A DNA stretch of 64,000 nucleotides from Candidatus Collierbacteria bacterium GW2011_GWB2_45_17. Its GTDB lineage: Bacteria > Patescibacteriota > Microgenomatia > UBA1400 > MFAQ01. Shown one piece after another: positions 3,636 through 64,000 of the stretch. The number at the start of each line of letters is the position of its first letter. The stretch's first letter is position 1. Both the position numbers and the translations under genes were made by a program. Below the pieces are notes generated by a model. It had not been told where the DNA came from and did no database searches. It saw nothing but the letters and a program-made list of their open reading frames with translations. The stretch is taken from NCBI GenBank assembly GCA_001001485.1, contig LCKO01000001.1, positions 9,381 to 73,380 on the forward strand, written 5' to 3'.

Positions 3636-3752
3636 TTCCTATACAGTTTACATGCTATACTATCCCCAGTCCACGGAAACGCTGTTGAGAGTGAATTGTC
3701 TGAGTTCCCCCCAAAACTAACCGTAAACTAGGATTATTAGTATAATAAAATT

Positions 3753-5405
3753 ATGTCTCAACTTAAGTTGATTCCTCTCGGCGGTGTTGGTTCGGTCACC
3801 AAAAATATGTACGTTTACGAATACGGTGATGACCAGTTGGTCATCGACTGCGGTATGGGCTTCCCCAAAGACAATGCTCTTGGTGTGGATTCAGTCATTC
3901 CCGACATTAGTTACTTGGAAAAACCGGGCAAAAGACTGCTCGGTATCGTTCTGACTCACCCTCACATGGATCACATCGGAGGCCTGCCTTACATTCTCCC
4001 TCGTCTCAAAGAGGTTGAGGTCTTTGGTGGCAAGCTAGCCATTGCCATGGCCGAAATTCGGGTTCGTGAGTTTGGCATTCCCAATCGTATGACTCCAGTC
4101 GAGGGAACACTGGATCTGGGACCTTTTCACATTCAGTTTATTCACTCGACTCACTCGGTCCCGAACTGTTTCCATTTATTAATCAAGACTCCGGCCGGAA
4201 CTGTCTATCACGGCGCCGATTACAAGTTTGATCTCACCCCTATCGACAATCTCCCTCCGGATCTAGGAGCCATGGCCGCCGCCGGCAATAACGGTGTCGA
4301 CCTTATGCTTACCGACTGCTTGGGTATCGAAAAGTCCGGTTTTTGTCCTTCGGAGAGAACTTTGATGGGAGCCATCGATAACGAAATCAGAAATACTCAG
4401 GGAAAACTTATCTTCACCACCATGTCTTCATCGATCTCACGATTTCAAATTGCTATCGACTCTTCGGTCAAGTACCATCGTCGCATCGCCATCATTGGTC
4501 GATCCGTCGAACAGAACATTGAGGCCGCCGCCAAAACCGGTTTTATCAAAATCCCGAATGGTGTTTTGATCAAACCTGCCCAGATTGCCGATCTGCCAGC
4601 CAATCAAGTCACCATTCTTATCTCCGGCTCCCAAGGCCAGTCCGGTTCAGCCATGCATCGGCTGGCTAACAACGAACATCGGCTGGCTAACTTGAAAAAA
4701 GGCGACAAGGTTATCATCAGCTCCAACGCTATCCCTGGTACCGGCAACGACGCCGACATTTTTGACCTTATGGACACCTTGTACAAAAACAGTATCGATG
4801 TTGTTTACTCCGGTACTTCGGAAAATCTTCACGTCTCTGGTCATGGCTACCGAGGTGACATGGCTCTACTGGCTCGTTTAATCCGACCCAGGAACATTAT
4901 CCCCATCGGTGGCGATCTCCGTCATATGATGCTTTATAAAAATCTTGCCAAAGATTTGAACATGGATGCAGAAAAGGTTTTTGTACTTTCCGAGGGTCAG
5001 TCCATCATTCTCGAAGACCATGTCGTTAAAGAAGGTCCCAAGTTCGAAACAAAAAATATCTATGTTGATGGTCTGGGTATCGGTGACGTTGGCACCGTGG
5101 TTCTACGTGACCGTCAGGTCATGTCTGAAGATGGCATTCTTCTCACGATTGTCCCCATTAGGCGCGACAACTCCCAGGTGGGCGGTGATATCGAGATTAT
5201 TTCTCGAGGCTTCGTCTATCAAAAGGAGTCTCAAGATCTCATTCGCGATGCCCGCAAGCAGGTGCAAAACTGTCTGAAAGATATCAAGGGACCGGCCACC
5301 GACTGGGGCTTCCTCCGAAAGAAGATCGAAAGCCAGCTGGAAAAATTTGCCTTCGACCATACCCAGCGCCGCCCCCTCGTCATCGCCATTTTGATCGAGG
5401 TTTAG
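3753..5405 (+). CDS. rnj: Ribonuclease J (beta-CASP metallo-beta-lactamase RNase)
   Basis: HPHMDHIGG motif, beta-CASP region, 550 aa, typical RNase J architecture. Confidence 0.8.
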   Translation: MSQLKLIPLGGVGSVTKNMYVYEYGDDQLVIDCGMGFPKDNALGVDSVIPDISYLEKPGKRLLGIVLTHPHMDHIGGLPYILPRLKEVEVFGGKLAIAMAEIRVREFGIPNRMTPVEGTLDLGPFHIQFIHSTHSVPNCFHLLIKTPAGTVYHGADYKFDLTPIDNLPPDLGAMAAAGNNGVDLMLTDCLGIEKSGFCPSERTLMGAIDNEIRNTQGKLIFTTMSSSISRFQIAIDSSVKYHRRIAIIGRSVEQNIEAAAKTGFIKIPNGVLIKPAQIADLPANQVTILISGSQGQSGSAMHRLANNEHRLANLKKGDKVIISSNAIPGTGNDADIFDLMDTLYKNSIDVVYSGTSENLHVSGHGYRGDMALLARLIRPRNIIPIGGDLRHMMLYKNLAKDLNMDAEKVFVLSEGQSIILEDHVVKEGPKFETKNIYVDGLGIGDVGTVVLRDRQVMSEDGILLTIVPIRRDNSQVGGDIEIISRGFVYQKESQDLIRDARKQVQNCLKDIKGPATDWGFLRKKIESQLEKFAFDHTQRRPLVIAILIEV

Positions 5406-5408
5406 CCA

Positions 5409-5440
5409 CTTGACTTCGGGTAATTTTTGGTAGTAAACTT
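5409..5440 (+). promoter_or_regulatory. Promoter-like element CTTGACTTCGGGTAATTTTTGGTAGTAAACT (-35 TTGACT, then a -10-like TAGTAAACT) immediately after the rnj stop, upstream of the HigBA-like cassette
   Basis: Sigma70-like hexamers; a near-identical copy lies at 6634-6664. Confidence 0.4.
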
Positions 5441-5483
5441 GTTGCAGATGTCAATTGACATTATGATAAATTTATCATAAAAT

Positions 5484-5780
5484 ATGAAACTAGAGATCGA
5501 CAAAAGAGTTCTTAATTTTCTCAAAAAAATCCCCCTCAAGGACTCCACGAAGGCTCTTAGTTACATCGAACTCTTCGAAAAATATCAGTTTAATCTGGAC
5601 GCCAGATATTTAAAAAAAGTGTCTGGTCCAGTCTGGGAACTAAGGCCAGGCAGAATAAGGCTTTACTTATTAGTCAAGTCACCCAGACAAATTGTTATTT
5701 ACGCTATTATCAAAAAATCACAAAAAATTACCAAAGCAGATCTAAAAACAATTCAGTCAAGGCTGAGCGAATATCTATGA
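5484..5780 (+). CDS. HigB-like toxin (RelE superfamily, phage Gp49-like/DUF891)
   Basis: 98 aa; VWELRPGRIRLYLLV...IVIYAIIKKSQKITKADL matches the Gp49-like toxin pattern; toxin-first order with a 4-nt overlap to an XRE HTH gene. Confidence 0.65.
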   Translation: MKLEIDKRVLNFLKKIPLKDSTKALSYIELFEKYQFNLDARYLKKVSGPVWELRPGRIRLYLLVKSPRQIVIYAIIKKSQKITKADLKTIQSRLSEYL

Positions 5781-6067
5781 AAACCAACCCAAAAACTATA
5801 TCTGTTTCAGAACTCAAAAAGGAGCTTCTAAAAAATAAAAACTTTAAACTTGAATACGAGTCCAAACTTCCTGAGTCTCAAATTGCCTGTCAAGTAATTG
5901 AGGCAAGGCTTAAACAAAACATGTCCCAGGTTGAGCTTGCAAACAAAATTCATTCCGGTCAGGCAGTTATCTCCCGCTTGGAAAGCTTGAACTCCAAACC
6001 ATCCCTCTCGCTTCTGATCAAAATCGCCAAAGCTCTCGACACAAAAATAAACCTATCGATCGGATAA
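5777..6067 (+). CDS. HTH XRE-family antitoxin (HigA-like)
   Basis: MSQVELANKIHSGQAVISRLE helix-turn-helix; ATGA overlap with the upstream toxin. Confidence 0.65.
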   Translation: MKTNPKTISVSELKKELLKNKNFKLEYESKLPESQIACQVIEARLKQNMSQVELANKIHSGQAVISRLESLNSKPSLSLLIKIAKALDTKINLSIG

Positions 6068-6122: not shown

Positions 6123-6194
6123 GTCATTCCGAGTTTCGTACCCGAACCGAAGCAATCTCACTCTCTGTCATTCCGGGCTTGACCCGGAATCCAG
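6123..6194. repeat. Two adjacent hairpin repeats: GTCATTCCGAG...GAAGCAATCTCACTC, then GTCATTCCGGGCTTGACCCGGAATCCAG
   Basis: Inverted repeats TTCCGGG/CCCGGAA; the same families occur elsewhere in the window. Confidence 0.6.
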
Positions 6195-6633: not shown

Positions 6634-6664
6634 CTTGACTTCGGGTAATATTTGGTGTTAAATT
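6634..6664 (+). promoter_or_regulatory. Second copy of the promoter-like element CTTGACTTCGGGTAATATTTGGTGTTAAATT, upstream of the Bro-N gene
   Basis: Identical to the 5409-5440 element apart from three substitutions. Confidence 0.4.
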
Positions 6665-6670
6665 GTAATT

Positions 6671-7498
6671 ATGGATACTTTAAACAGAATTGCAATTTTT
6701 CGGGGAAAGAAAATTAGAAAAGTTATTTTCCTCAACGAATGGTGGTTTTCTGTAGTAGATATTTGCGGAGCTCTTATCGATAGTCCAGATCCTGGTGCCT
6801 ATTGGAGAAAACTTAAACAAAGACTTATTTCAGAAGGAAGCCAAGTCGTGACATTTTGTCACGGGTTGAAATTACCAGCTCCTGATGGAAAAATGCGCGA
6901 AACAGATTGTGCTAACACCGAAGGCATCTTCCGTATCATCCAGTCCATTCCTTCTCCCAAAGCGGAGCCATTTAAAATGTGGTTAGCTAAAGTTGGTTAC
7001 GAAAGGGTTCAAGAGATAGAAGACCCAGAACTAGCCACCAAACGCACCAGAGCTCTCTACAAGGCCAAAGGCTATCCAGATTCCTGGATCGAAAAACGAA
7101 TGCGGGGTATTGTCATCCGCGAAGAATTAACCGAGGAGTGGCAACAAAGGGGAGTAAGGCAAAAAAAAGATTACGAAATTCTAACTTCCGAAATCTCCAA
7201 AGCCACTTTCGGCGTCACTCCCAAAGAATACAAAAATCTAAAAGGCTTAGAGCGCGAAAATCTAAGAGATCATATGGACGACTTTGAACTCATTTTTACC
7301 ATGTTGGGGGAGCGTTCTACTACCGAAATCCACCGCAATGAAAATTCCCAAGGCGTTCCAAAACTAAAAAAAGATGCCAACAGGGGAGGCAGAGTCGCAG
7401 GCGTTGCCAGAAAAGAGCTCGAAAAAGAAATCGGCAGATCAGTAGTAACAAAAACTAACTTCCTCTCAAAACCTAAAAAGAGATTGAAAGCCAGCTAG
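6671..7498 (+). CDS. Bro-N domain protein (phage antirepressor / DinD-like family)
   Basis: N-terminal FRGKKIRKV...EWWFSVVDICGALID...TEGIFRIIQSIPSPKAEPFKMWLAKV is the Bro-N signature; the C-terminal region is conserved as in Bro-N/DinD-like proteins. Confidence 0.6.
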   Translation: MDTLNRIAIFRGKKIRKVIFLNEWWFSVVDICGALIDSPDPGAYWRKLKQRLISEGSQVVTFCHGLKLPAPDGKMRETDCANTEGIFRIIQSIPSPKAEPFKMWLAKVGYERVQEIEDPELATKRTRALYKAKGYPDSWIEKRMRGIVIREELTEEWQQRGVRQKKDYEILTSEISKATFGVTPKEYKNLKGLERENLRDHMDDFELIFTMLGERSTTEIHRNENSQGVPKLKKDANRGGRVAGVARKELEKEIGRSVVTKTNFLSKPKKRLKAS

Positions 7499-16812: not shown

Positions 16813-16925
16813 GTCATTGCGAGCGTAGCGCGGCAATCTAACTCTAATTATAGTGTCATCCCGGACCTGGATCCGGGATCCATCCCCTCCGTCATTGCGA
16901 GTCTCGTATTCGAGCCGAAGCAATC
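16813..16925. repeat. Three adjacent hairpin repeats: GTCATTGCGAGCGTAGCGCGGCAATC, GTCATCCCGGACCTGGATCCGGGATCCATCCCC and GTCATTGCGAGTCTCGTATTCGAGCCGAAGCAATC
   Basis: Members of the same GTCAT repeat families seen elsewhere in the window. Confidence 0.6.
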
Positions 16926-29022: not shown

Positions 29023-29871
29023 GTGATCACAAATTACTGCCCGATTTGTGGAGAATTGGTATTTAAAAAGCGAAAATTTTGTTCGGTTAAATGTAAGTCT
29101 GAAAGTCAAAATCAAAAGATTGAGTTAGAATGCACTGGTTGCGGTAACCATTTCAGGATATTGCCATATTTACAAAGGAAATCTAATTACTGCTCCGTCT
29201 CTTGCTATCACGACTCCACTAGGAAAAAAGAAATTAAAAATTGTCCGGTTTGCAGGAAGAATTTTTCAGTTATGGCGTGTTTAGTAAAGAAAGGTTTTGG
29301 AATTTATTGTTCTCAGAAATGTCGTTATAAAATTCACAGGAAGACTCAAGTTTGTTATCGATGCGGAAAGGAGTTTACTAGGGCATTATCATTATCTATT
29401 AAATATACAAAGTCATTTTGCAGTAAAAAGTGTTGCGACGACTCAACAAGGGAATATGTTTCGATATCGTGCCGCAATTGTCAGAAAATGATCTCAATTC
29501 CAAGAAGCACAATTAATCGAGGTAAGGGAGGATTCTGCTCCTGGTACTGTTATATCCACTATAAAGGCGAAACATCAATCGAAAAGATTGTGAGAATCCG
29601 ACTAAAAAAGGCCAAAATACCATTTGAACAAGAAGTTAAAATCGGTAAATACCATTCAGATTTTATGATCCAAAACACCAACATTCTGATTGAATGTGAT
29701 GGTGATTACTGGCACGGATTACCTTCAGCAATTGCCAAAGATAAGGTTCGAGATTTGATATTACGGACAAAAGGGTATGAAGTGCTTCGATTTACCGAGA
29801 CCGAGATAAAAAAGACAAAAGGAAACTGTGTTATTAATCAATTATCACAAAGGACAGACGTTAAGCAATGA
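29023..29871 (+). CDS. Zinc-ribbon-repeat protein with a C-terminal DUF559 (Vsr-like / restriction-endonuclease-fold) nuclease domain
   Basis: Five repeats of CxxC...x10-15...(F/Y)CSxxC, then IVRIRLKKAKIPFEQEV...SDFMIQNTNILIECDGDYWHG...DKVRDLILRTKGYEVLRFTETEI (DUF559 pattern). Confidence 0.55.
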   Translation: MITNYCPICGELVFKKRKFCSVKCKSESQNQKIELECTGCGNHFRILPYLQRKSNYCSVSCYHDSTRKKEIKNCPVCRKNFSVMACLVKKGFGIYCSQKCRYKIHRKTQVCYRCGKEFTRALSLSIKYTKSFCSKKCCDDSTREYVSISCRNCQKMISIPRSTINRGKGGFCSWYCYIHYKGETSIEKIVRIRLKKAKIPFEQEVKIGKYHSDFMIQNTNILIECDGDYWHGLPSAIAKDKVRDLILRTKGYEVLRFTETEIKKTKGNCVINQLSQRTDVKQ

Positions 29872-55957: not shown

Positions 55958-56003
55958 ATTCCGTTTCACTCACCAATAATTATTTAAATAAACTAAAACG
56001 CGC

Positions 56004-56117
56004 ATGCGGGTTCAATCGTCCGTCAGACCTCGTTGCAAGAATTGCAAAATTATTAAACGCCATGGTAAGGTGTTGGTCATTTGTACCAATCCCCGCCATA
56101 AACAACGCCAAGGATAA
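56004..56117 (+). CDS. rpmJ: 50S ribosomal protein L36 (not in the ORF track; found by manual translation)
   Basis: ATGCGGGTTCAATCG... translates to [37 protein letters not shown]. Confidence 0.8.
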
Positions 56118-56120
56118 CCC

Positions 56121-56546
56121 ATGCCCAGACTTTCCGGTATCGATATTCCCAACGAAAAAAGAATTGATATCTCTCTAACCTATATCTATGGTGTCGGTGA
56201 TATGGTCGCCAAAGATATCCTCAAAAAATCCAAGGTGGCTCCTCATATTCGTACCAAAGATCTCTCCGGAGAAGAGTTAAAAAGTATTCAAACTGTCTTA
56301 GACACTCTCCCCACCGAAGGAGAACTTCGTAAAATGGTGCGCGATAATATCGAAACTCTCAAAAGAATTCAAGCCTACCGAGGGACAAGACACTCTATGG
56401 GTCTTCCGGTTAGAGGCCAACGGACCAAAACCAACGCCCGTACCAGAAAAGGCAAGCGAAAGACCATTGGTGCTATCTCCAAAGAAGCCTCTACCGCTAT
56501 CTCCCCCGCTCCGGCCGCCAAGGCTCCTGTAGCCAAAAAGAAATAA
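56121..56546 (+). CDS. rpsM: 30S ribosomal protein S13
   Basis: S13 signature. Confidence 0.9.
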   Translation: MPRLSGIDIPNEKRIDISLTYIYGVGDMVAKDILKKSKVAPHIRTKDLSGEELKSIQTVLDTLPTEGELRKMVRDNIETLKRIQAYRGTRHSMGLPVRGQRTKTNARTRKGKRKTIGAISKEASTAISPAPAAKAPVAKKK

Positions 56547-56556
56547 CTAAAACCAC

Positions 56557-56970
56557 ATGCCAGAAGAAAAACCCATCATCAAACCGGTCTTAAAAAACAA
56601 AAAAGCCTCCGCCATTCATTTTAAAAGCGGTCAGGGTAAAATGTATGTCAAGTCTACCTTCAATACAACCTATGTTACTTTTACCGACACCACGGGCAAC
56701 ACTGTTTGTTGGAGTAGCGCCGGCACTTGTGGTTTCAAAGGGGCCAAGAGATCCACTCCGTTTGCGGCTACCACCATTATTGAAGAAGGTCTTCGAAAAG
56801 CCAAAACTCTAGGCCTAACTAACATCGATGTCTATCTCAAAGGCCCCGGACCAGGGAAAGACGCCGCTCTTCGTGTTCTAAAGACCTCCGGTGCCGAAAT
56901 CAATATGCTGGCCGACACCACTCCCATTCCCCACAACGGCTGTCGCCCCAGAAAACATCGCCGAGTCTAA
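56557..56970 (+). CDS. rpsK: 30S ribosomal protein S11
   Basis: S11 signature. Confidence 0.9.
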   Translation: MPEEKPIIKPVLKNKKASAIHFKSGQGKMYVKSTFNTTYVTFTDTTGNTVCWSSAGTCGFKGAKRSTPFAATTIIEEGLRKAKTLGLTNIDVYLKGPGPGKDAALRVLKTSGAEINMLADTTPIPHNGCRPRKHRRV

Positions 56971-57005
56971 ACCAAGAACTAATAACCAATAACTAAAAAT
57001 AAAAC

Positions 57006-57629
57006 ATGGCCAAATACATCGATCCCAAATGCAGACTTTGTCGCCGAGAAGGTGAAAAGCTTTATTTGAAAGGTGCCCGTTGTTTCACCCCCAAATGTCC
57101 CATTGAAAAAAGAGGCGGTCAAATCCCCGGTCAGCACGGCAAAAAAAGAACCCGTGGTCGTATTTCCGGCTATGGCATTCAGCTTCGTGAAAAACAAAAG
57201 GCCAAACGCCTTTATGGTGTTCTCGAAGGCCAGTTCCATCGCTACTACGAGCTCGCTATCAAATCAAAAGACAACACCGCCGAAATGTTGGTCCAGCTCT
57301 TGGAATCCCGTTTAGACAATATCTGTTACCGCCTAGGTTTTACTCTTTCCAGATCACTTGCTCGTCAATTAGTTACTCATGGCAACGTTCTGGTCGATGG
57401 TAAAAAGGTCGATGTACCCTCATTTCAAACCAAACCCGGTATGATTATCTCTCTTCCTGCCCATGCCGCTAAGTTCGACTTTGTCGCTCCTAATCTGATC
57501 GAAAAAAATGCCCCCGCCAAGTGGCTTTCTCGTGTGGGCACACAGGGTAAAATCGACCGTCTACCAGGAAGAGACGAAGTTGGCACGGACATGAAGACCA
57601 ATCTCATTATTGAGTTCTACTCAAGATAA
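57006..57629 (+). CDS. rpsD: 30S ribosomal protein S4
   Basis: S4 signature. Confidence 0.9.
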   Translation: MAKYIDPKCRLCRREGEKLYLKGARCFTPKCPIEKRGGQIPGQHGKKRTRGRISGYGIQLREKQKAKRLYGVLEGQFHRYYELAIKSKDNTAEMLVQLLESRLDNICYRLGFTLSRSLARQLVTHGNVLVDGKKVDVPSFQTKPGMIISLPAHAAKFDFVAPNLIEKNAPAKWLSRVGTQGKIDRLPGRDEVGTDMKTNLIIEFYSR

Positions 57630-58557
57630 TTTATTAACAATTAGTCACAAAAAAATGTTAGAACCAAACTTCAAAATCACCCTTAAGGACAAAGAGATAA
57701 ACTCTGCCGAGGTCATTATCGAACCGCTTCCCCAAAACTTTGGTCACACCATGGGCAATGCTCTTCGTCGTGTTTTATTAACCTCTCTTGAAGGCGGTGC
57801 CGCCGTGAGAGTCAAAATTGACGGCGTTTCTCACCAGTTTTCTACCCTCACAGGTCTCAAAGAAGATATCCTCGAGTTTGTTCTCAATCTTAAGACTTTA
57901 AACTTTTTTGTCGATTCCGACGAACCGGTCGACATCAAGCTCAAAGCCACCGGAATCAAAGTCGTTAAAGCCTCCGATCTTGATTTGCCCTCAAACGTCA
58001 CCATTGCTAACTCCGGTACCGTTCTGGCGAACCTTACCTCTCCAAAATCAAAACTGTCTGCCGTGATTACCGTTTCTAGAGGCATGGGCTATGTCGGTTC
58101 CGAGGACAACGCCACCAACGAAATAGGTGTAATCCCCTTGGATGCCTCTTTTTCTCCGGTTATCAAAGCCAACTACACCGTCGAAGCCGCCCGTGTCGGG
58201 CGTTCCAGTAACTACGATAAAGTTCGCTTGAGTCTCACGACCGATGGTACCATTACCCCTGAAGAAGCAGTCAGAAGCGCCGCTCGAATCCTCACCGGTT
58301 TCTATGACTACGTTAACTCAGCCGAGGCTTATGTGATCGAGAAGAAGTCTTCTCACGAAGCCACTACCGCCGGCTTCGTCGACGACCTCGACCTTCCCAC
58401 TCGTGTTTTAAACGCCCTAAAAAAGGCTGGCTTTAACAAACTAGCCGATCTCAAAACTCTCACTCTCGCCGACTTAAGGAAAGTTAAAAATCTAGGCGAA
58501 AAATCAGCCATACAAGTGGTTGAAAAAGCCGGGGAAAAAGGTATCGACATTATCTAA
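57610..58557 (+). CDS. rpoA: DNA-directed RNA polymerase alpha subunit
   Basis: Alpha N-terminal domain and C-terminal domain; 315 aa. Confidence 0.9.
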   Translation: MSSTQDNLLTISHKKMLEPNFKITLKDKEINSAEVIIEPLPQNFGHTMGNALRRVLLTSLEGGAAVRVKIDGVSHQFSTLTGLKEDILEFVLNLKTLNFFVDSDEPVDIKLKATGIKVVKASDLDLPSNVTIANSGTVLANLTSPKSKLSAVITVSRGMGYVGSEDNATNEIGVIPLDASFSPVIKANYTVEAARVGRSSNYDKVRLSLTTDGTITPEEAVRSAARILTGFYDYVNSAEAYVIEKKSSHEATTAGFVDDLDLPTRVLNALKKAGFNKLADLKTLTLADLRKVKNLGEKSAIQVVEKAGEKGIDII

Positions 58558-58563
58558 CACAAC

Positions 58564-58977
58564 ATGGGACGCCGACATCACTCAAAACTAGCCAAACTCA
58601 ACCGCAGTACCAAGGAGAGAAAGTCTCTCTTCAAGATACAGCTCCGTCAGCTCATCGAACTTGGCAAAATCACTACTACTGTGGCAAAAGCCAAAGTGAT
58701 CAAACGTCTTTTTGACAAGTTGGCGGCCAAAGCCACCGACGGTACCCTGGCCGTGAGACGCAATATCGCGGCCCAGCTCAGTAGCCCCAAGACTGCCAAC
58801 AGACTGGTTGATTTCATTATTCCCATCATGGGTGGCCGACGTAGTGGCTTCACCAGTATCCAAAAGGTGGGTATCCGCAAAGGCGACTCCACTCTGACTG
58901 CCTCCTTAACTCTAGTGGTTCCTCTTCCCCCAGAGCCGGAAAAGATTAAGAAAGTCATTAAAGCAAAAACCAAATGA
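58564..58977 (+). CDS. rplQ: 50S ribosomal protein L17
   Basis: L17 signature. Confidence 0.85.
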   Translation: MGRRHHSKLAKLNRSTKERKSLFKIQLRQLIELGKITTTVAKAKVIKRLFDKLAAKATDGTLAVRRNIAAQLSSPKTANRLVDFIIPIMGGRRSGFTSIQKVGIRKGDSTLTASLTLVVPLPPEPEKIKKVIKAKTK

Positions 58978-59423
58978 ACACTACTACCCTCAAATTCTCT
59001 GACGTGAAACACAATTGGCACTTAGTTGATATAGATGGTCAAATTCTCGGCCGGGTAGCCGTTCAAATTGCTAAACTTCTCACCGGCAAAGGTAAGGCTC
59101 TGACCGGCGATCATCTCGATAACGGTGATTTTGTCGTCGCCATTAATGCAGCCAAGTTCAAAGTCACCGGCAAAAAGATGGCCGATAAAATGTATTATTC
59201 TCACTCCGGCTTCCCAGGTGGTTTCAAAGAGATCACTCTGGCCCAGCTCGCTGAAAAGGACGCTCGAAGGGTCATCGAAAAGGCCGTTAAGGGAATGCTC
59301 CCGAAGAACAAACTCCAGCAAACTCGCCTCAGGCGCCTTAAACTTTATCTCGACGACAAACATCCCTATGCTGTCGAACTAGGACTCAAAACTAAGAACC
59401 AAGAACTAACAACTAAGAACTAA
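58974..59423 (+). CDS. rplM: 50S ribosomal protein L13; its C-terminal KTKNQELTTKN is encoded by an AACTAAGAAC tract
   Basis: L13 signature. Confidence 0.85.
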   Translation: MNTTTLKFSDVKHNWHLVDIDGQILGRVAVQIAKLLTGKGKALTGDHLDNGDFVVAINAAKFKVTGKKMADKMYYSHSGFPGGFKEITLAQLAEKDARRVIEKAVKGMLPKNKLQQTRLRRLKLYLDDKHPYAVELGLKTKNQELTTKN

Positions 59424-59426
59424 TAT

Positions 59427-59903
59427 ATGGCTCAAAAACTATCCAAAAAATCCAAAATCGCTATCAAACCGGTAAAAACAGTTCCCGTTAAAAAAGGTAC
59501 TCTCACCATGCCCAAAGAATTCTTTTCCGCCGTCGGTCGTCGCAAAACCGCCATCGCTCGTGTTCGTCTCTGGTCCGGTAAGCAAGAATTAACTGTCAAC
59601 GGCAAACCCATCTCCGAGTATTTCAAAGGAGAGTCTTTCAAAAGAATCTATCAATCACCATTCTTGGTGACCGACACTCTTAGTCAATTCACCGGTAGTA
59701 TCAAAGTAGTGGGCAGCGGGCTTATGGGTCAAGTAGGTGCTTTGGTACACGGTTTGTCCCGCACTCTGGTCAAGATTGACGAAGCCCACAAATTACCTCT
59801 CCGGGAAAAAGGTTTCATCACTCGAGATCCCCGTATGAAAGAGACTCGAAAAGCCGGTCAGGGTGGCCGAGCTCGCGCCAAGAAGCAATCCCCCAAACGT
59901 TAA
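59427..59903 (+). CDS. rpsI: 30S ribosomal protein S9
   Basis: S9 signature, C-terminal ...KKQSPKR. Confidence 0.9.
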   Translation: MAQKLSKKSKIAIKPVKTVPVKKGTLTMPKEFFSAVGRRKTAIARVRLWSGKQELTVNGKPISEYFKGESFKRIYQSPFLVTDTLSQFTGSIKVVGSGLMGQVGALVHGLSRTLVKIDEAHKLPLREKGFITRDPRMKETRKAGQGGRARAKKQSPKR

Positions 59904-59911
59904 ATTATCCT

Positions 59912-60020
59912 GTAGGGGCTGGGTTCACCCTGCCCGTACGTGTGTCATTGCGAATCTCGTACTCGAGCTGTGGCAATCTCACCCCACTGTCATCCCGGAC
60001 TTGATCCGGGATCCATCCCC
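59912..60020. repeat. Hairpin repeat cluster: GTAGGGGC...GCCCGTAC, GTCATTGCGAATCTCGTACTCGAGCTGTGGCAATC and GTCATCCCGGACTTGATCCGGGATCCATCCCC
   Basis: Same families as the 16813 cluster. Confidence 0.6.
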
Positions 60021-60057
60021 TGTTACAATACCCCATAACCCATTTAGGAGGCGCACC

Positions 60058-60462
60058 TTGGACATCGTAATTGAAGTAAAAAATGTCGGCCAAAATTTTA
60101 AACCAGAACAGGTTTCTCTTAAGTATTTGTTGACTGACGTTCTCAAGTTCTTTGAGCAGGCAGTCTATCCGATAAAACTTGACGGTAAGGTACGCGCAAT
60201 CTTTATTCCCGCCAAGAAACTTGAGTTCAATCCAGAAACCGGAACAATGATTCCCGCCGAACGGGTTGAGGTCATTATCAAATATGAATACGTCAAGGGT
60301 GGTGCCCAGCCACCAATGATCAGTGATTTTCATGACAGTGCCATAGAGATTGTCAAAGACGTAATGTTATTTTTAGATCACACCAACAACAGTGACCTGT
60401 TTCTTCCAGCCATCCATATCGTCGTGAGTTTGTCCAGCCCTCAGTACTTTGTTCGAATATAA
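60058..60462 (+). CDS. Hypothetical protein (TTG start 7 nt after AGGAGG)
   Basis: 135 aa from the TTG; the upstream part of the ORF-track ORF 59863-60462 translates the repeat cluster. Confidence 0.4.
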   Translation: MDIVIEVKNVGQNFKPEQVSLKYLLTDVLKFFEQAVYPIKLDGKVRAIFIPAKKLEFNPETGTMIPAERVEVIIKYEYVKGGAQPPMISDFHDSAIEIVKDVMLFLDHTNNSDLFLPAIHIVVSLSSPQYFVRI

Positions 60463-60465
60463 CCA

Positions 60466-60490
60466 CCACCCCTCGCAAGAGGGGCTTTTA
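60466..60490 (+). terminator. Intrinsic terminator CACCCCTCGCAAGAGGGGCTTTT
   Basis: 6-bp GC stem, GCAA loop, T-tract. Confidence 0.6.
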
Positions 60491-60510
60491 GTATAAAATG
60501 GGTGTAAATT

Positions 60511-61329
60511 ATGACAAACGAATCGATAGTTATTTTTGAAAGTATAAAAAGGGTTAACGATGACAACAACGAGTTTTGGACGGCTCGAGCAATGGCTCGC
60601 GAGCTTGGTTATTCTGAATACCGTCATTTTTTACCAGTCATAGAAAAGGCGAAGCTTTCATGTAAAAATAGCGGTCAATCAATCAAAGATCATTTCGAGG
60701 ACTTCCTCGACATGATCGAACTTGGTAAAACAGCATCAAGAGAAATGTTAGACATTAAACTTTCCAGATATGCTTGTTATCTCATCATGCAAAATGCTGA
60801 TCCCTCAAAAGAGATCGTTGCCCTAGGGCAAACCTATTTTGCTATCCAAGCCAGAAAACAAGAGGTCCAAGAGCAGATTGTAGAAGACATAAAGAGAGTC
60901 GATCTCAGGGGAGAAATATCAATTCACAACAAACATCTCGCCGAAGCGGCCAGTATGGCCGGAGTGAGAAACTACGGATTGTTTACCAATTATGGCTATA
61001 GGGGTTTGTATGGTGGTAGGACGATGCAGGATATACAAAGGGTTAAAGGACTAAAGAAATCTCAGCAAATTCTTGACCATATGGGCAGTGAAGAACTAGC
61101 GGCAAATTTATTTAGAGCCACTCAAACAGATGCCAAAATCCGGCGTGAGAACATCCAAGGAGAAGCAAGGGCAAACGAAGCTCATCTTCAGGTAGGAAAA
61201 AAAGTCAGACAGACAATAAAAGATATTGGTGGTACCATGCCGGAAATCCTACCAGTCTCAGATGCAATAAATAAAGCCAAGACCAGAATAAAAAGAGGAG
61301 GAATCTCGTTGATAGAGGTAAAACCATGA
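60511..61329 (+). CDS. DNA-damage-inducible protein D (DinD)-like protein
   Basis: LSRYACYLIMQNADP, LGQTYFAIQARKQE, GYRGLYGG, KGLKKSQQILDHMGSEELAANLFRATQTDAKI match the DinD family. Confidence 0.6.
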   Translation: MTNESIVIFESIKRVNDDNNEFWTARAMARELGYSEYRHFLPVIEKAKLSCKNSGQSIKDHFEDFLDMIELGKTASREMLDIKLSRYACYLIMQNADPSKEIVALGQTYFAIQARKQEVQEQIVEDIKRVDLRGEISIHNKHLAEAASMAGVRNYGLFTNYGYRGLYGGRTMQDIQRVKGLKKSQQILDHMGSEELAANLFRATQTDAKIRRENIQGEARANEAHLQVGKKVRQTIKDIGGTMPEILPVSDAINKAKTRIKRGGISLIEVKP

Positions 61330-62279
61330 AAATTTCCTGGCTCATTTTTTTATTCCTCATTATATTTTTGTCTCCCCTCCTCTTTAGTCAAAAAAATCCT
61401 TCTTCTGTCATCTCCGAAGGTGTTCTTGAGCAACCATCTGTCATCCGAGATCTAAAATCTGAGAACTCTGTTTTTACCCTCCTCTTCGGAGGAGATGTCA
61501 TGCTCGGCCGTTCGGTCAATACGAGAATTATCAAGTATGCCGATTTTTCCTGGCCTTTCCGAAAAATAACCTCTCTGTTTTCGGAGGCGGATTTAACTAT
61601 GGTCAATCTCGAATCTCCCTTTCAAACCGGATGCAAGCCGACTGATAAAGGTATGATTTTTTGCGCCGATCCCCGCTCGGTTGAGGGCTTAACCACTGCC
61701 GGCATTGATATCGTCAATCTGGCCAACAATCACATCAATAATCAGGGCCAGGAGGGGATCGACGAAACGATCAATATTTTAAATAAGAATAATATTGCTT
61801 ATGTAGGGGCGAGGCGTGACTCGTCCGTCGTTTTCAACATCAAAAATACCAAAATTGCCTTCCTGGGATTCACCGATATCGCTTCCGGTTCCAAAGATGT
61901 TTCTACTGCCTCACCGGACAGCATTAAGTCCCAAATTTCTGAGGCCAAAAAATCAGCCGACCTAGTCATTACCACTTTTCACTGGGGCAATGAGTATAGT
62001 CAGCGTTCTCTTCATCAGGTAGAGTTGGCTCACTTGGCGATCAATTCCGGCGCCGATGTGGTGATCGGACATCATCCTCATTGGGTGCAGGAAACCGAAG
62101 AATATAAAGGTAAACCCATCTACTACTCCTTAGGAAATTTAGTCTTCGATCAGATGTGGTCCGAAGAAACCCGAAAGGGCTTGGTTGTTAGCCTTATCTT
62201 CTCAGGTAATCAATTGGTAAATAAAGAAGAAATCCCCATAAAGATTTTTGATTACGGTCAGCCAAACTTGGTAAATTAA
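61326..62279 (+). CDS. CapA/PgsA-family metallophosphatase (poly-gamma-glutamate-synthesis-like)
   Basis: Signal/TM start, FGGDVMLGR, NLE, GHHPHW motifs. Confidence 0.65.
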   Translation: MKISWLIFLFLIIFLSPLLFSQKNPSSVISEGVLEQPSVIRDLKSENSVFTLLFGGDVMLGRSVNTRIIKYADFSWPFRKITSLFSEADLTMVNLESPFQTGCKPTDKGMIFCADPRSVEGLTTAGIDIVNLANNHINNQGQEGIDETINILNKNNIAYVGARRDSSVVFNIKNTKIAFLGFTDIASGSKDVSTASPDSIKSQISEAKKSADLVITTFHWGNEYSQRSLHQVELAHLAINSGADVVIGHHPHWVQETEEYKGKPIYYSLGNLVFDQMWSEETRKGLVVSLIFSGNQLVNKEEIPIKIFDYGQPNLVN

Positions 62280-62350
62280 ATTAAAATAAATCCAAACAAT
62301 ATAGATAGAACTAGACGTACGGATAAAAATTGATATATCAACCTATATTG

Positions 62351-62422
62351 TCGGGGCACCCGGAATTGAACCGAGATCATGTCGACCCCATCGACACATA
62401 CTAGCCGTTATACTATGCCCCG
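62351..62422 (-). tRNA. tRNA-Pro (anticodon GGG)
   Basis: Manual fold of the reverse complement: acceptor CGGGGCA/TGCCCCG with discriminator A (C1-G72 and A73 are typical of bacterial tRNA-Pro); D-loop AACGGCTA; anticodon stem TGTCG/CGACA with loop ATGGGGT (U33, anticodon GGG, G37); T-arm CTCGG-TTCAATT-CCGGG; no encoded CCA. Confidence 0.7.
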
Positions 62423-62479
62423 AAGAATATATTCTACCATGTACTTGACATTTCGGGTTATATTTGTATAAATTAATAT

Positions 62480-63343
62480 ATGTATGAGATCGAAGTAATC
62501 TGTGACCACTGTAAAAAAGAATTTGAGAGACCATTAGGGAGATTCAACGAAGCCGTGAAGTTTGGCTGGAAACAATTTTGTTCGGCAGAATGCCAATCAA
62601 AATCAAAGTCTAAAAAGATATCAAAAATCTGTGATAATCCAGTGTGCCATAAATCAATATTGGCTAAGAAAACAACCAGCTATACATACTGTTCGAGAAA
62701 TTGTAGCGCAACTCACAACAATTTATTGAGGTTAAAACCATTTGTTTTGGAAAAGTGTGCCAATAAAAACTGTAACAATTTTCTCAGAAATCACGAATGT
62801 AAGTATTGTTCTAGAGATTGTGTCAATAAGTCCAAAAAAGGTCTGTCTTCGTATTCAAAAGAAAAACTAATACAAATTATTCAAAAGTTTCAACTAGATA
62901 ATGGAAGAATTCCTACCAAAGCAGAACTAGGATATCTCAATAGACCTGCAAGAAACATTTTTGGTTCTTGGAACAAAGCTGTTAAAGCTGCCGGCTTCAT
63001 ACCCAACAAAGTCATTTTTTCTAAAAAGTTTACAGCCAACGATGGTCATATCTGTGATTCTTTGTCAGAAAAAATCGTCGACGATTGGTTATCCGCTAGA
63101 AGCATAAAGCATGAAGTTCACATTAGGTATCCCTGGAAAAACGGTATGTCCGCAGACTTCAAGATTGGTAAATATTGGGTAGAGTTATTTGGTCTTACAG
63201 GTCAACTTAAAAAGTACGATAGCTTAATGAGAACAAAGTTAGAATTAATCAAACAATATAATCTCAAGCTAATCAGTTTGTACTTATCAGACATTTTTCC
63301 CGTTAACCATCTTGATAAAAAATTATCCCTATTGCGAAAATAA
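62480..63343 (+). CDS. Zinc-ribbon-repeat protein with a homing-endonuclease-associated-repeat-like segment and a C-terminal DUF559-like nuclease domain; paralog of 29023-29871
   Basis: Three CxxC...(F/Y)CSxxC repeats as in 29023-29871; GRIPTKAELGYLNRPARNIFGSWNKAVKAAGF; the C-terminal ADFKIGKYWVELFGL...QYNLKLISLYLSDI aligns with the DUF559 block of the paralog. Confidence 0.5.
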   Translation: MYEIEVICDHCKKEFERPLGRFNEAVKFGWKQFCSAECQSKSKSKKISKICDNPVCHKSILAKKTTSYTYCSRNCSATHNNLLRLKPFVLEKCANKNCNNFLRNHECKYCSRDCVNKSKKGLSSYSKEKLIQIIQKFQLDNGRIPTKAELGYLNRPARNIFGSWNKAVKAAGFIPNKVIFSKKFTANDGHICDSLSEKIVDDWLSARSIKHEVHIRYPWKNGMSADFKIGKYWVELFGLTGQLKKYDSLMRTKLELIKQYNLKLISLYLSDIFPVNHLDKKLSLLRK

Positions 63344-63367
63344 CCCCAATAGTTATAATGATTTTAA

Positions 63368-64000
63368 ATGCTAAAGAAAATCAAAAAAACCAAAGAGGAG
63401 AAAATCGTTGCTAAACCGGTAGATAACAGCGCTCGTCTCACCGCCGTCAAGATCGCCATGCAACAAATCACTAAACAGTTCGGTGAAGGAGCCATCATGC
63501 ACATGGGCTCGGATCGTGTCGGCGAAAAAATTCCGGTCATTTCTTCCGGTTCAATTGGTTTGGACATTGCTCTGGGGGTAGGTGGTTTTCCCAAGGGGAG
63601 AATTGTCGAAATCTACGGCCCGGAGGCTTCCGGTAAGACTACCGTTGCTCTCCACGCTATTGCCGAAGCTCAAAAAGCCGGTGGTATAGCCGCCTTTATA
63701 GACGCAGAGCACGCTGTTGATCCTTCCCGCGCCAAATCCATCGGAGTTGATCTGGACAGCTTACTTCTTTCTCAGCCGGACAACGGTGAACAGGCCTTAG
63801 AAATTGCCGAAACTCTCATCCGCTCCGGCGGTGTGGATGTTGTGGTTATCGATTCGGTCGCCGCCTTGGTTCCCAAGTCCGAGATCGAAGGTGAAATGGG
63901 GGACGCGTCTATGGGTATGCAAGCCAGGTTAATGAGCCAGGCTCTACGTAAGATTACCGGCGCCATCTCCAAGAGCAAGTGTATTGTCATCTTTACCAAT
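63368..64000 (+). CDS. recA: Recombinase RecA (5' part; runs off the window end)
   Basis: GPEASGKTT Walker [16 protein letters not shown] motifs. Confidence 0.9.

Follow-up and report, generated by a model that had tools for sequence, protein, structure and literature searches.

A nuclease gene between tRNA-Pro(GGG) and recA

Near the right-hand end of the window, i.e., the whole stretch of 64,000 nucleotides of Candidatus Collierbacteria DNA that was analysed, a gene for a putative nuclease lies between a tRNA gene and recA. The neighbours of the tRNA are genes for a Bro-N protein and a CapA protein (PGA_cap), a 142-amino-acid ORF without a Pfam match, the nuclease gene and recA. The features of the locus, together with a distant paralogue elsewhere in the window, are as follows:

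29023-29871, plus strand: distant paralogue with FCS zinc fingers and a DUF559/MTES_1575 nuclease domain (Pfam)
62325-62341, minus strand: AT-only palindrome TTGATATATCAA and then TTTTT, directly 3' of the tRNA (sequence reading, repeat scan)
62350-62422, minus strand: tRNA-Pro(GGG) gene (ARAGORN; Rfam RF00005 gives 62351-62422)
62431-62439, minus strand: predicted extended -10 element of the tRNA promoter, TGgTAGAAT, ending 8 nt ahead of tRNA position 1
62445-62472, plus strand: predicted nuclease promoter with -35 TTGACA (62445-62450), a 16-nt spacer with TTTCGGGTTATATTTG, and -10 TATAAA (62467-62472) (promoter scan)
62480-63343, plus strand: nuclease ORF, ATG start, 287 amino acids
62480-62839, plus strand: N-terminal region (residues 1-120) with four CxxC...(F/Y)CSxxC treble-clef zinc fingers of the FCS/MYM/eL24 type
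62852-62998, plus strand: HNH_repeat (homing endonuclease associated repeat, Pfam PF18780; residues 125-173), a three-helix module
63017-63343, plus strand: C-terminal Vsr-like PD-(D/E)xK nuclease domain (residues 180-287)
63332-63359, plus strand: predicted recA promoter, TTGCGA, 16 nt, TATAAT (promoter scan and comparison with loci L168-L171)
63368-64000, plus strand: recA, cut by the window end (PF00154, E 8.5e-91), a backbone neighbour and not part of the element

The minus-strand tRNA-Pro had been found by folding in the first-pass annotation, and it proved to be real: ARAGORN called it as the single tRNA of the whole window, and the Rfam tRNA model RF00005 matched it with 50.3 bits (E 5e-10) in a scan of a 400-nt slice. 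At gathering threshold, Rfam gave no match over the complete window, which was a filter miss. A custom covariance model (R1) gave 76 bits on the tRNA of a locus from the same species (L161), in which complete recA is present plus recX and rny. The gene carries C1:G72 and A73, which are bacterial tRNA-Pro identity features, and G37 too; its CCA end is not encoded. The TGnTAnAAT form of its predicted -10 element recurs at the equivalent place in L168-L171. Judged from its sequence, the palindrome with its TTTTT tract is possibly a weak terminator of the tRNA gene; it was missed by the terminator scan because its stem lacks G-C pairs.

Domain architecture and fold of the nuclease

The N-terminal array of four fingers presumably binds DNA. 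Invariant Cys columns are found at C8, C11, C34, C38, C51, C56, C71, C75, C93, C98 and C110, and profile searches linked the region weakly to MYM-type fingers and to eL24. One family member (P0062) has PF06467, phrog_1271 matches the zinc-finger region, and the AF2 model reaches a pLDDT of about 90 there. The adjoining motif, which had earlier been described as resembling a homing-endonuclease-associated repeat, is a genuine HNH_repeat, with a PF18780 match (E 6e-12, 46.1 bits) above the gathering cut-off of 26 and helices at residues 127-141, 151-161 and 164-170 of the AF2 model.

When the PDB was searched by sequence, both the protein itself and the profile picked up zinc-finger look-alikes only, so that a fold search was needed. 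The alpha-beta-beta-beta-alpha core of the C-terminal domain superposes on Vsr-like nucleases, with I-Bth0305I and Vsr as the best fold matches; the domain is a member of the PD-(D/E)xK superfamily, in the Vsr-like branch, and closest to the EDxHD enzyme I-Bth0305I. Family-invariant residues are D188, C192, S194, E197, D201, H211, D226, E235, G238, Y246 and K253. Four of these, which we infer to be catalytic, are invariant in 96 sequences: E197 (helix 195-206), D226 (strand 224-229), E235 (strand 232-236) and K253 (helix 244-259).

A DUF559-like domain had been proposed for this protein. At the level of Pfam or NCBIfam this does not hold, as neither DUF559 (PF04480) nor Vsr (TIGR00632) matched the ORF at E <= 1 or 0.1; what stands is remote homology to the DUF559 protein encoded at 29023-29871. 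BLASTP between the two proteins aligned the Cys repeats alone (E 1e-4), and hhalign of the nuclease family profile against ORF 29023-29871 gave a probability of 95.7% (E 9e-9) over an alignment that spans the nuclease core (helix SxxEKIV, strand xDF and strand xIE). The idea that the gene is a second member of the CxxC nuclease family is thus upheld beyond the Cys motifs, with the two proteins as distant paralogues.

N-termini are swapped among homologues (L066 has an HTH, and L025 and L169 have a smaller number of fingers), and similarity can be mosaic: the C terminus of P0005 is near-identical to that of the window's protein and its N terminus has diverged. Together with two copies carrying in-frame stops (L022 and L054, of 80), these observations indicate a modularity typical of homing endonucleases.

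Linkage to tRNA-Pro(GGG) across Patescibacteria

A homologue search yielded 80 loci, one per assembly, all titled as or resembling Patescibacteria. Leaving out six loci without usable upstream sequence, tRNA-Pro(GGG) borders the 5' end of the nuclease gene in 73 of the 74 loci that could be tested across the Patescibacteria, L068 being the sole true exception. ARAGORN placed the tRNA directly upstream in 57 loci, and a purpose-built covariance model found tRNA-Pro in 13 further loci plus two cut by contig ends; the anticodon was GGG throughout. In about 1.2 Mb of loci, 72 tRNA-Pro(GGG) genes (59 from ARAGORN, 13 from the covariance model) compare with about 20 other tRNAs. The adjacency is far beyond chance and not incidental. 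The tRNA lies on the same strand as the nuclease gene in 53 loci and on the opposite strand in 19. The 5' end of the nuclease gene always faces the tRNA, a rule that the homing model discussed below does not predict.

The genomic backbones around the pair differ, being recA-recX-rny in about 30 loci and rpsL-rpsG-fusA in about 10, and the linkage survives at least three types of rearrangement. Counted by distance, recA-recX-rny is found within about 2 kb in 36 of the 80 loci. It is kept without a nearby recA in Parcubacteria-type loci beside rpsL-rpsG-fusA, and tRNA-Pro(GGG) and recA are neighbours in genomes without the gene, too (L081, L131, L168 and L171). The gene for RecA is found near the nuclease only because it adjoins tRNA-Pro(GGG) in the Microgenomates backbone. 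The tRNA and recA had been taken for generic integration neighbourhoods; the attachment is instead specific to tRNA-Pro(GGG), phylum-wide. A signature peptide of the family occurs in 104 of 185,579 species representatives, and the family forms 273 clusters at 50% identity. No description of a tRNA-Pro linkage of such a nuclease was found in the searchable literature, of which coverage is incomplete.

A relative is also encoded on a jumbo-phage-like IMG/VR contig (L172), where ORF 4539-5543 shows 36% identity to the nuclease over residues 105-280 and matches phrog_9084, 'homing endonuclease'. It begins 43 nt after a tRNA-Pro(UGG) gene, within a tRNA cluster. The GenBank phage collection contained no protein-level match.

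T- and D-loops are non-canonical in about a third of the gene-linked tRNA-Pro(GGG) genes. For the T-loop, this applies to about 24 to 32 of 72 linked tRNAs versus 0 of 5 unlinked ones, the latter being too few for a test. ARAGORN overlooks tRNA-Pro(GGG) genes with odd T-loops, which are recovered by the covariance model.

Presence, absence and inheritance of the gene

Among Collierbacteria with RecA proteins 86 to 91% identical, the gene is present in L169 and L170 and absent in L168 and L171, which keep tRNA-Pro(GGG) on the minus strand beside recA. More empty sites are provided by L081, L131 and L083. A RecA-seeded metagenome search, in which the matches listed were mostly from unrelated bacteria (62 to 73% identity), gave at least three useful CPR loci. 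In blastn alignments of the window with empty loci, homology stops at the 5' end of the tRNA (62424) and resumes at the -35 element of recA (63332). The gene is hence polymorphic for presence and absence among close relatives, with sharp boundaries. Permissive tblastn searches of the empty L168 and L171 spacers revealed no convincing nuclease remnants, and in the window's own species the gene is present in 24 of 24 contigs.

In a neighbour-joining tree of the C-terminal 168 amino acids, sequences from Collier-, Levy-, Woese- and Gottesmanbacteria and from Parcubacteria (taxonomy from record titles) each cluster. As this tree largely follows taxonomy, long vertical residence accounts for it better than frequent homing between lineages would, and the gene may be an ancient resident or partially domesticated. 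Pairwise identities of RecA and the nuclease are weakly correlated (rho 0.31), both being near saturation and hence uninformative for vertical versus horizontal inheritance. Within Collierbacteria, no consistent substitution separates gene-linked from gene-less tRNA alleles, and the gene-linked tRNA of L003 has the same anticodon stem as that of the gene-less L171.

Promoters and expression

The ATG of the nuclease gene follows 7 nt past the predicted -10 element and no Shine-Dalgarno sequence is present, so that the mRNA is, on this reading of the sequence, probably leaderless. The promoter motif occurs three times in the window versus 0.16 expected copies, and 24 of 31 matches in 1.2 Mb of related loci lie directly upstream of members of the nuclease family. 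Toxin-antitoxin and Bro-N genes elsewhere in the window also have the motif.

The last nuclease codons (L-L-R-K-stop) overlap the recA -35 element, and the spacer of the recA promoter, AAATAACCCCAATAGT, repeats the element of the nuclease spacer in inverted and slightly degenerate form. This element, TTTCGGGTTAT(A/T)TTTG, is inverted in the recA promoters of Collierbacteria, including the gene-less L168 and L171, and has the forward orientation in those of L020, L040, L057 and L061. Sharing of the element suggests that the nuclease gene is regulated together with the recombination machinery or regulates itself. Autorepression is known for I-TevI, which sets a precedent for a self-regulated homing endonuclease.

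In 20 loci the start codon lies 0 to 14 nt past the tRNA, a spacing that requires co-transcription followed by separation through processing. In many lineages the nuclease would be expressed by read-through of the tRNA transcript. In the 19 loci with an opposite-strand tRNA, including the window, it has its own promoter.

A putative homing-endonuclease-type gene as the best explanation

The gene is best explained as a free-standing homing-endonuclease-type gene that has the tRNA-Pro locus as its home and is driven by a conserved, probably leaderless promoter sharing an element with recA promoters; we put the probability of this reading at about 0.55. With one tRNA gene as its fixed address, it resembles a selfish or semi-domesticated element. 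Its site beside a conserved host gene is fixed, and its presence or absence is marked by sharp boundaries, as is characteristic of homing genes. It is not housed in an intron or intein: the tRNA is uninterrupted, the ORF stands alone behind a promoter of its own, and no intron was detected by Rfam.

That the protein cleaves DNA, where its target lies, that the gene homes and how it is regulated are inferences. By analogy with phage T4 SegB, the zinc fingers and the HNH_repeat would direct the protein to a long DNA sequence within or next to a gene-less tRNA-Pro(GGG) locus, and the nuclease domain would cut there. RecA-dependent repair off the gene-bearing allele would then copy the nuclease gene along with the adjoining tRNA allele, and only copies tightly linked to the tRNA gene would persist. 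Expression would rely on the compact promoter, with a probably leaderless mRNA, or on tRNA read-through in many lineages.

An unlikely alternative is a domesticated host repair or recombination endonuclease that is co-regulated with recA and sits at tRNA-Pro(GGG) by conserved ancestral synteny. The frequent proximity of recA-recX-rny, the recurrence of the promoter spacer element in recA promoters (gene-less relatives included), a tree that follows taxonomy, and invariant catalytic residues with few pseudogenes would all agree with such a role. However, the tRNA linkage persists without nearby recA and through the rearrangements described above, where ordinary synteny is not conserved. Moreover, close relatives lack the gene, its occurrence among species representatives and its number of clusters (both given above) are low for a core repair gene, and a phage carries a relative beside tRNA-Pro(UGG).

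A bolder version of the homing reading, which we regard as quite unlikely, takes nuclease and tRNA-Pro(GGG) as an ancient module. Here the nuclease would act on the tRNA gene itself and set off an arms race of drive and resistance, with fast, structure-preserving remodelling of the tRNA (non-canonical T- and D-loops, whole-stem replacements among close relatives), and coupling of its expression to the recA regulon would time the cuts to periods of recombination repair. If true, this would be a chromosomal gene drive shaping a component of translation across a bacterial phylum and its phages.

It is improbable that the protein is an RNA-processing enzyme, encoded beside its substrate, whose Vsr/RAP-like domain cleaves or binds pre-tRNA-Pro(GGG) or a tRNA-mRNA co-transcript. 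The processing required at the 20 closely spaced loci and the non-canonical loops in about a third of the linked tRNAs would suit such an enzyme. Yet, 19 loci, including the window, have an opposite-strand tRNA and a separate nuclease promoter, genomes without the gene keep and presumably use tRNA-Pro(GGG), and a trans-acting RNase has no need of strict cis linkage. In addition, the HNH_repeat and the best fold matches are those of DNA enzymes.

A role as a single-gene anti-phage defence nuclease that lodged in a variable region by chance is very improbable. Residues 180-282 match the candidate defence system PDC-S69 of PADLOC (E 3e-10), and HEAT_CxxC_PD-DEXK matches at 8e-4; accessory genes (Bro-N, CapA) occupy the flanking interval, and toxin-antitoxin and Bro-N genes share the promoter motif. 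The PDC-S69 match is confined to the generic nuclease domain, though, and PDC systems are candidates that await validation; defence genes are not known to keep to a single tRNA species throughout a phylum, and a phage itself has a relative.

The interval from rpsI to the tRNA had been regarded as an accessory block, which agrees with its variability among relatives: it is empty in L081 and L083, holds a 135-amino-acid ORF and RNase HII in L169, and contains Memo-CapA, bactofilin and others in L168 and L170. Despite this variation, cargo of an integrase-type island at a tRNA or recA hotspot is extremely improbable, as no integrase or recombinase was seen beside the tRNA in the interval, the nuclease gene of the window flanks the 5' end of the tRNA and not the 3' att side, and the same gene-tRNA pair occurs in 73 loci with unrelated surroundings. 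The island model was rejected on the att-site test: the att-like duplicated tRNA 3' fragment for which a check had been suggested earlier does not exist in the window, as no second copy of the 22-nt tRNA 3' end was found in the 64 kb at up to three mismatches, nor any tRNA-derived repeat in 56000-64000.

Relation to known systems

Phage T4 SegB is a free-standing GIY-YIG homing endonuclease encoded in a tRNA cluster, and its proposed way of spreading is to cut SegB-less genomes in their tRNA region (intronless homing). The nuclease gene described here resembles it as a free-standing gene among tRNA genes, and the L172 phage relative lies in just such a cluster. Unlike the present nuclease, SegB is a GIY-YIG enzyme, phage-only and not known to keep to a single tRNA species throughout a bacterial phylum. 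I-Ssp6803I, the PD-(D/E)xK homing endonuclease of a tRNA-fMet group I intron (PMC3239194), is likewise a homing enzyme of this superfamily with a tRNA gene as target, the target being putative in our case. Its gene is carried by an intron within the anticodon loop, whereas here the tRNA is uninterrupted and the gene lies outside.

I-Bth0305I and the EDxHD family (PDB 3R3P) include free-standing members (PMC3239194). I-Bth0305I itself is intron-encoded inside phage recA and has NUMOD/HTH modules, in contrast to the FCS zinc fingers and HNH_repeat of the free-standing nuclease beside a tRNA gene. The two have no detectable sequence similarity, and the sequence profile does not reach 3r3p. With E...D...ExF...K, the active site looks more canonical than the composite E-D-x-H-D of the EDxHD enzymes, for which D196, N208, H213 and D222 are the residues in I-Bth0305I. 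D226 and E235 are present in the nuclease family, in which a counterpart to the general-base His is not obvious beyond strand 3.

PDC-S69 shares the C-terminal position of the profile and a similar protein length with the nuclease, the N-terminal part being unmatched. To our knowledge, no tRNA linkage has been described for this unvalidated defence candidate.

If the homing reading is true, Patescibacteria have a Vsr-like subfamily of homing-type endonucleases, unnamed until now, that joins FCS zinc fingers and an HNH_repeat in a new DNA-binding architecture and has a single tRNA species as its address; the address of a sister subfamily is the rpsG-fusA junction. An annotation would follow for a few hundred protein clusters now called 'hypothetical', and these would be rare free-standing homing-type genes that persist phylum-wide in cellular chromosomes rather than in phages or organelles. 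Enzyme and candidate target locus would also form a testable pair toward new long-site nucleases. The odd elbows of tRNA-Pro(GGG), the promoter element shared with recA and the apparently leaderless expression may inform on regulation and tRNA evolution in these little-studied bacteria.

Compared with DUF559/Vsr/MTES_1575 proteins, including that of ORF 29023-29871, the nuclease has 'E(F/L)FGL' in place of the 'ExDG..H' segment, and an HNH_repeat is inserted. The addresses of the two paralogues differ as well, being tRNA-Pro(GGG) for the nuclease and the 3' end of rpsG for ORF 29023-29871. Members of the latter family lie directly behind rpsG in five of five independent contexts (the window, L162/L163, L164, L165 and L167), and the genes downstream of them vary.

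Architecture of the nuclease gene beside tRNA-Pro(GGG)

The gene examined here lies between a tRNA-Pro(GGG) gene and recA, with the following features:

62350-62422, minus strand: tRNA-Pro(GGG) (ARAGORN), the sole tRNA in the 64-kb window
62445 (TTGACA) and 62467 (TATAAA), plus strand: nuclease promoter with a 16-nt spacer, the ATG following 7 nt later
62480-63343, plus strand: nuclease ORF, 287 aa
63368 (start), plus strand: recA (Pfam RecA, E = 8.5e-91)

The minus-strand tRNA-Pro proposed in the first-pass annotation was borne out by ARAGORN and by the Rfam tRNA model (50.3 bits, E = 5e-10, slice 62200-62600). An Rfam gathering scan of the whole window returned no family at all, although this tRNA scores 50 bits on the short slice against a gathering score of 29; this is a filter artefact, and negatives from the whole-window scan are unreliable for short RNAs. 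C1:G72, A73 and G37 are present, and CCA is not encoded. The gene order of the window was repeated in 24 of 24 contigs read with its exact S9 protein. Adjoining rpsI, a 142-aa ORF (59905-60333) without a Pfam match may not be a real gene. MITE-like repeats, short and palindromic, of the TCCCGGAYYTGATCCGGGAT type were seen at about 59985-60015, within the region of this ORF, and at about 16850-16890 and 6140-6190.

The nuclease carries one copy of HNH_repeat (PF18780; residues 125-173, Pfam E = 6e-12). In an alignment of 96 sequences, four CxxC...(F/Y)CSxxC units have invariant Cys pairs, and a block in the C-terminal part is strongly conserved (D188, C192, S194, E197, D201, H211, D226, E235, G238, Y246, and K253). 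The zinc units show likeness to MYM/FCS fingers and ribosomal eL24, and PF06467 is present in one homologue. An AlphaFold2 model from this alignment reached a pLDDT of 90.4, and the place of E197, D226, E235, and K253 in the predicted secondary structure suggests that they form the canonical PD-(D/E)xK set. The prototype of the EDxHD family is I-Bth0305I, and free-standing genes are among its members (PMC3239194). Pfam detected no DUF559 in the 287-aa protein and an NCBIfam scan gave no match; the earlier label "DUF559-like" fits only the ORF at 29023. Source annotations of the family, which comprises 273 clusters at 50% identity (E <= 1e-30), read "hypothetical" or "homing endonuclease associated repeat-containing protein."

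Three related loci differ at the N terminus while keeping HNH_repeat, nuclease, and tRNA-Pro(GGG) adjacency: L066 (5986-6753) has a helix-turn-helix in place of the zinc-finger array, and L025 (9932-10711) and L169 (4190-4954) have fewer fingers.

Linkage to tRNA-Pro(GGG) across Patescibacteria

Relatives were sought with a family signature peptide in one genome per GTDB species. From the 104 relatives found, 80 loci were retained, and all of these come from Patescibacteria or bins resembling them. In 57 of the loci, ARAGORN placed a tRNA-Pro(GGG) 6 to 300 nt upstream of the gene. It rejects the T-loops of many remaining tRNAs. A covariance model built from the ARAGORN set revealed a further 13 loci with the tRNA, plus 2 cut by contig ends, with anticodon GGG in every find. 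Once six loci without usable upstream sequence had been left out, tRNA-Pro(GGG) was linked to the gene in 73 of 74 testable loci, L068 being the one real exception. The tRNA always stands at the 5' end of the nuclease gene; the two share a strand in 53 cases and lie on opposite strands in 19 (window included). About 1.2 Mb of related loci contain 72 tRNA-Pro(GGG) versus about 20 other tRNAs. The genes around the tRNA-nuclease pair vary: about 30 loci have recA-recX-rny, placed in one of three ways with respect to the pair, and about 10 Parcubacteria-type loci have rpsL-rpsG-fusA. The linked tRNA sequences are strongly diverged among loci and are the hosts' own, not a recently spread cassette. 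This linkage was undescribed in the literature searched on HNH_repeat/PF18780 and on homing endonucleases with tRNA-Pro or CPR, and a recent paper on Patescibacteria tRNA introns mentions neither tRNA-Pro nor free-standing genes.

About one third of the nuclease-linked tRNAs have the T-loop GGGGCGGAACC, GGGGCAGTACC, or GGAGCGTTACC instead of GGTTCGAATCC, accompanied by D-loops without GG; 13 of these were overlooked by ARAGORN. Other tRNAs in the L030 locus are canonical, as are the loops of all five gene-less tRNA-Pro(GGG) genes seen.

Loci with an odd-loop tRNA just upstream of the match
First half: L003, L004, L006, L007, L017, L024, L027, L028, L030, L034, L036
Second half: L040-L042, L048, L059, L064, L065, L070, L071, L075, L078, L079

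Weak, GC-rich covariance-model matches (14 to 15 bits) lie exactly at the nuclease gene 3' end in L006 (1027-1069) and L072 (402-444) and may represent either terminator hairpins or sequences resembling tRNA fragments.

Empty sites

Where the gene is missing, tRNA-Pro(GGG) on the minus strand directly adjoins recA on the plus strand (L081, with an rpsI-sized ORF just upstream of the tRNA, and L131), or the order is rpsI, tRNA, two membrane ORFs, and recA (L083). Among four Collierbacteria-level relatives chosen by RecA identity alone (86 to 91%), the gene is present in L169 and L170 and absent from L168 and L171, and the tRNA is kept in all four. The tRNA does not need the nuclease gene. In blastn comparisons of the window with empty loci, the tRNA aligned and homology picked up again precisely at the -35 hexamer of recA (63332); the intervening 907 bp (62425-63331) are specific to gene-bearing genomes. 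No nuclease-gene remnants were detectable in the empty spacers.

In the gene-less close relative L168 (4717-4775), 12 nt at the tRNA 5' end (ATACCCCGAAT on the plus strand), made up of tRNA positions 1 to 9 and 3 nt of leader, are directly duplicated, with the second copy 33 nt further, between tRNA and promoter. This repeat is scar-like. MITE-like palindromes (GTCATTCCCGACCTGATCGGGAATC) occur in the same spacer.

Relatives behind rpsG and in phages

The window encodes a second CxxC nuclease:

29023-29871, plus strand: zinc-finger nuclease paralogue (FCS fingers plus DUF559/MTES_1575)

BLASTP aligned only the Cys repeats of the two proteins. Comparison of the family profile with this ORF by hhalign (95.7% probability, E = 9e-9) also aligned the nuclease core, which upholds the kinship claimed in the first-pass annotation; the two are distant paralogues with a common architecture. 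The second family lies directly behind rpsG in all five independent contexts examined (window, L162/L163, L164, L165, and L167), with identities down to 43%, followed by varying genes (helicase, toxins, unknowns) and, where the contig reaches, by fusA further on. This resembles another free-standing gene of homing type, one whose fixed site is in the str operon. A pair of related nuclease families that each keep to one position next to a highly conserved gene is what would be expected of selfish nucleases with site specificity.

L172, a 179-kb jumbo-phage-like IMG/VR contig, encodes a 334-aa relative (ORF 4539-5543) in which zinc fingers, HNH_repeat, and nuclease are laid out in the same way. 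Identity is 36% across residues 105-280, and the protein matches phrog_9084 ("homing endonuclease"). Its gene begins 43 nt past a tRNA-Pro(UGG) that belongs to a phage tRNA cluster. This tRNA (4410-4496) is 87 nt long with a long variable arm, and the cluster also contains an HNH-RNA ligase fusion (2798-3826). In L175, another relative borders a tRNA cluster.

Promoter and expression signals

Since the ATG follows TATAAA by 7 nt and no Shine-Dalgarno sequence is present, the nuclease mRNA is probably leaderless. In 20 loci, the start codon lies 0 to 14 nt after the tRNA, and the gene must therefore be read from the tRNA transcript. About 27 loci, from both orientation classes, share a conserved spacer element, TTCGGGT-N3-4-ATTYGG(TA), ahead of the gene, and 24 of the 31 matches to TTGAC-N0-4-TTYGK-N5-9-TTYGK in the 1.2 Mb lie directly upstream of the nuclease gene. 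The 16-mer of the nuclease promoter turns up in recA promoters as well: inverted in those of Collierbacteria, gene-less members included, and forward in those of L020, L040, L057, and L061. As the element also occurs in recA promoters of several lineages, the genes carrying it may constitute a small regulon; a common regulator (SOS-like regulon) or autoregulation is plausible.

Elsewhere on the plus strand of the window, the motif TTGACTTCGGGTAAT(T/A)TTTGG recurs twice: at 5410-5430, ahead of two genes resembling a toxin-antitoxin pair (5484-5780 and 5777-6067), and at 6635-6655, where the ATG of a Bro-N-like ORF of 275 aa (6671-7498) follows 16 nt later. The recA promoter (63332-63359) has its -35 hexamer within the last nuclease codons (L-L-R-K-stop). 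With its ATG (63368) only 8 nt past the -10, recA may also be leaderless here.

A proposed homing-type gene and competing explanations

We favor, at a probability of roughly 0.55, a free-standing homing-endonuclease-type gene homed at tRNA-Pro. This reading draws on the predicted fold, HNH_repeat, swapped N-terminal DNA-binding modules, and near-invariant cis linkage to one conserved gene, as well as on the sharply bounded presence/absence polymorphism, the phage relative, and the sister family addressed to rpsG.

With the promoter element shared with recA in mind, a repair nuclease co-regulated with recA is a possible but distinctly weaker candidate. An RNase for pre-tRNA-Pro, against which the tRNAs retained at empty sites count, is unlikely. 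PADLOC PD-DEXK models match the same C-terminal nuclease residues; a defence nuclease seems slightly less probable still. Cargo of an island, the integration reading of the first-pass annotation, is contradicted by the lack of att repeats (checked as a tRNA 3' duplication) and of an integrase at the locus and is very improbable.

For the homing-type gene, three findings count against frequent homing: the C-terminal tree mostly tracks taxonomy, in-frame stops occur in L022 and L054 only, and in the species of the window the gene has reached fixation. The element may have been inherited largely vertically for a long time, with losses, or may be partly domesticated. The stops in L022 (about 10690) and L054 (about 5402) are single ones in otherwise intact copies, and L078 (6880-7810) has a frameshift with N-runs; these three copies are possibly pseudogenes or assembly errors.
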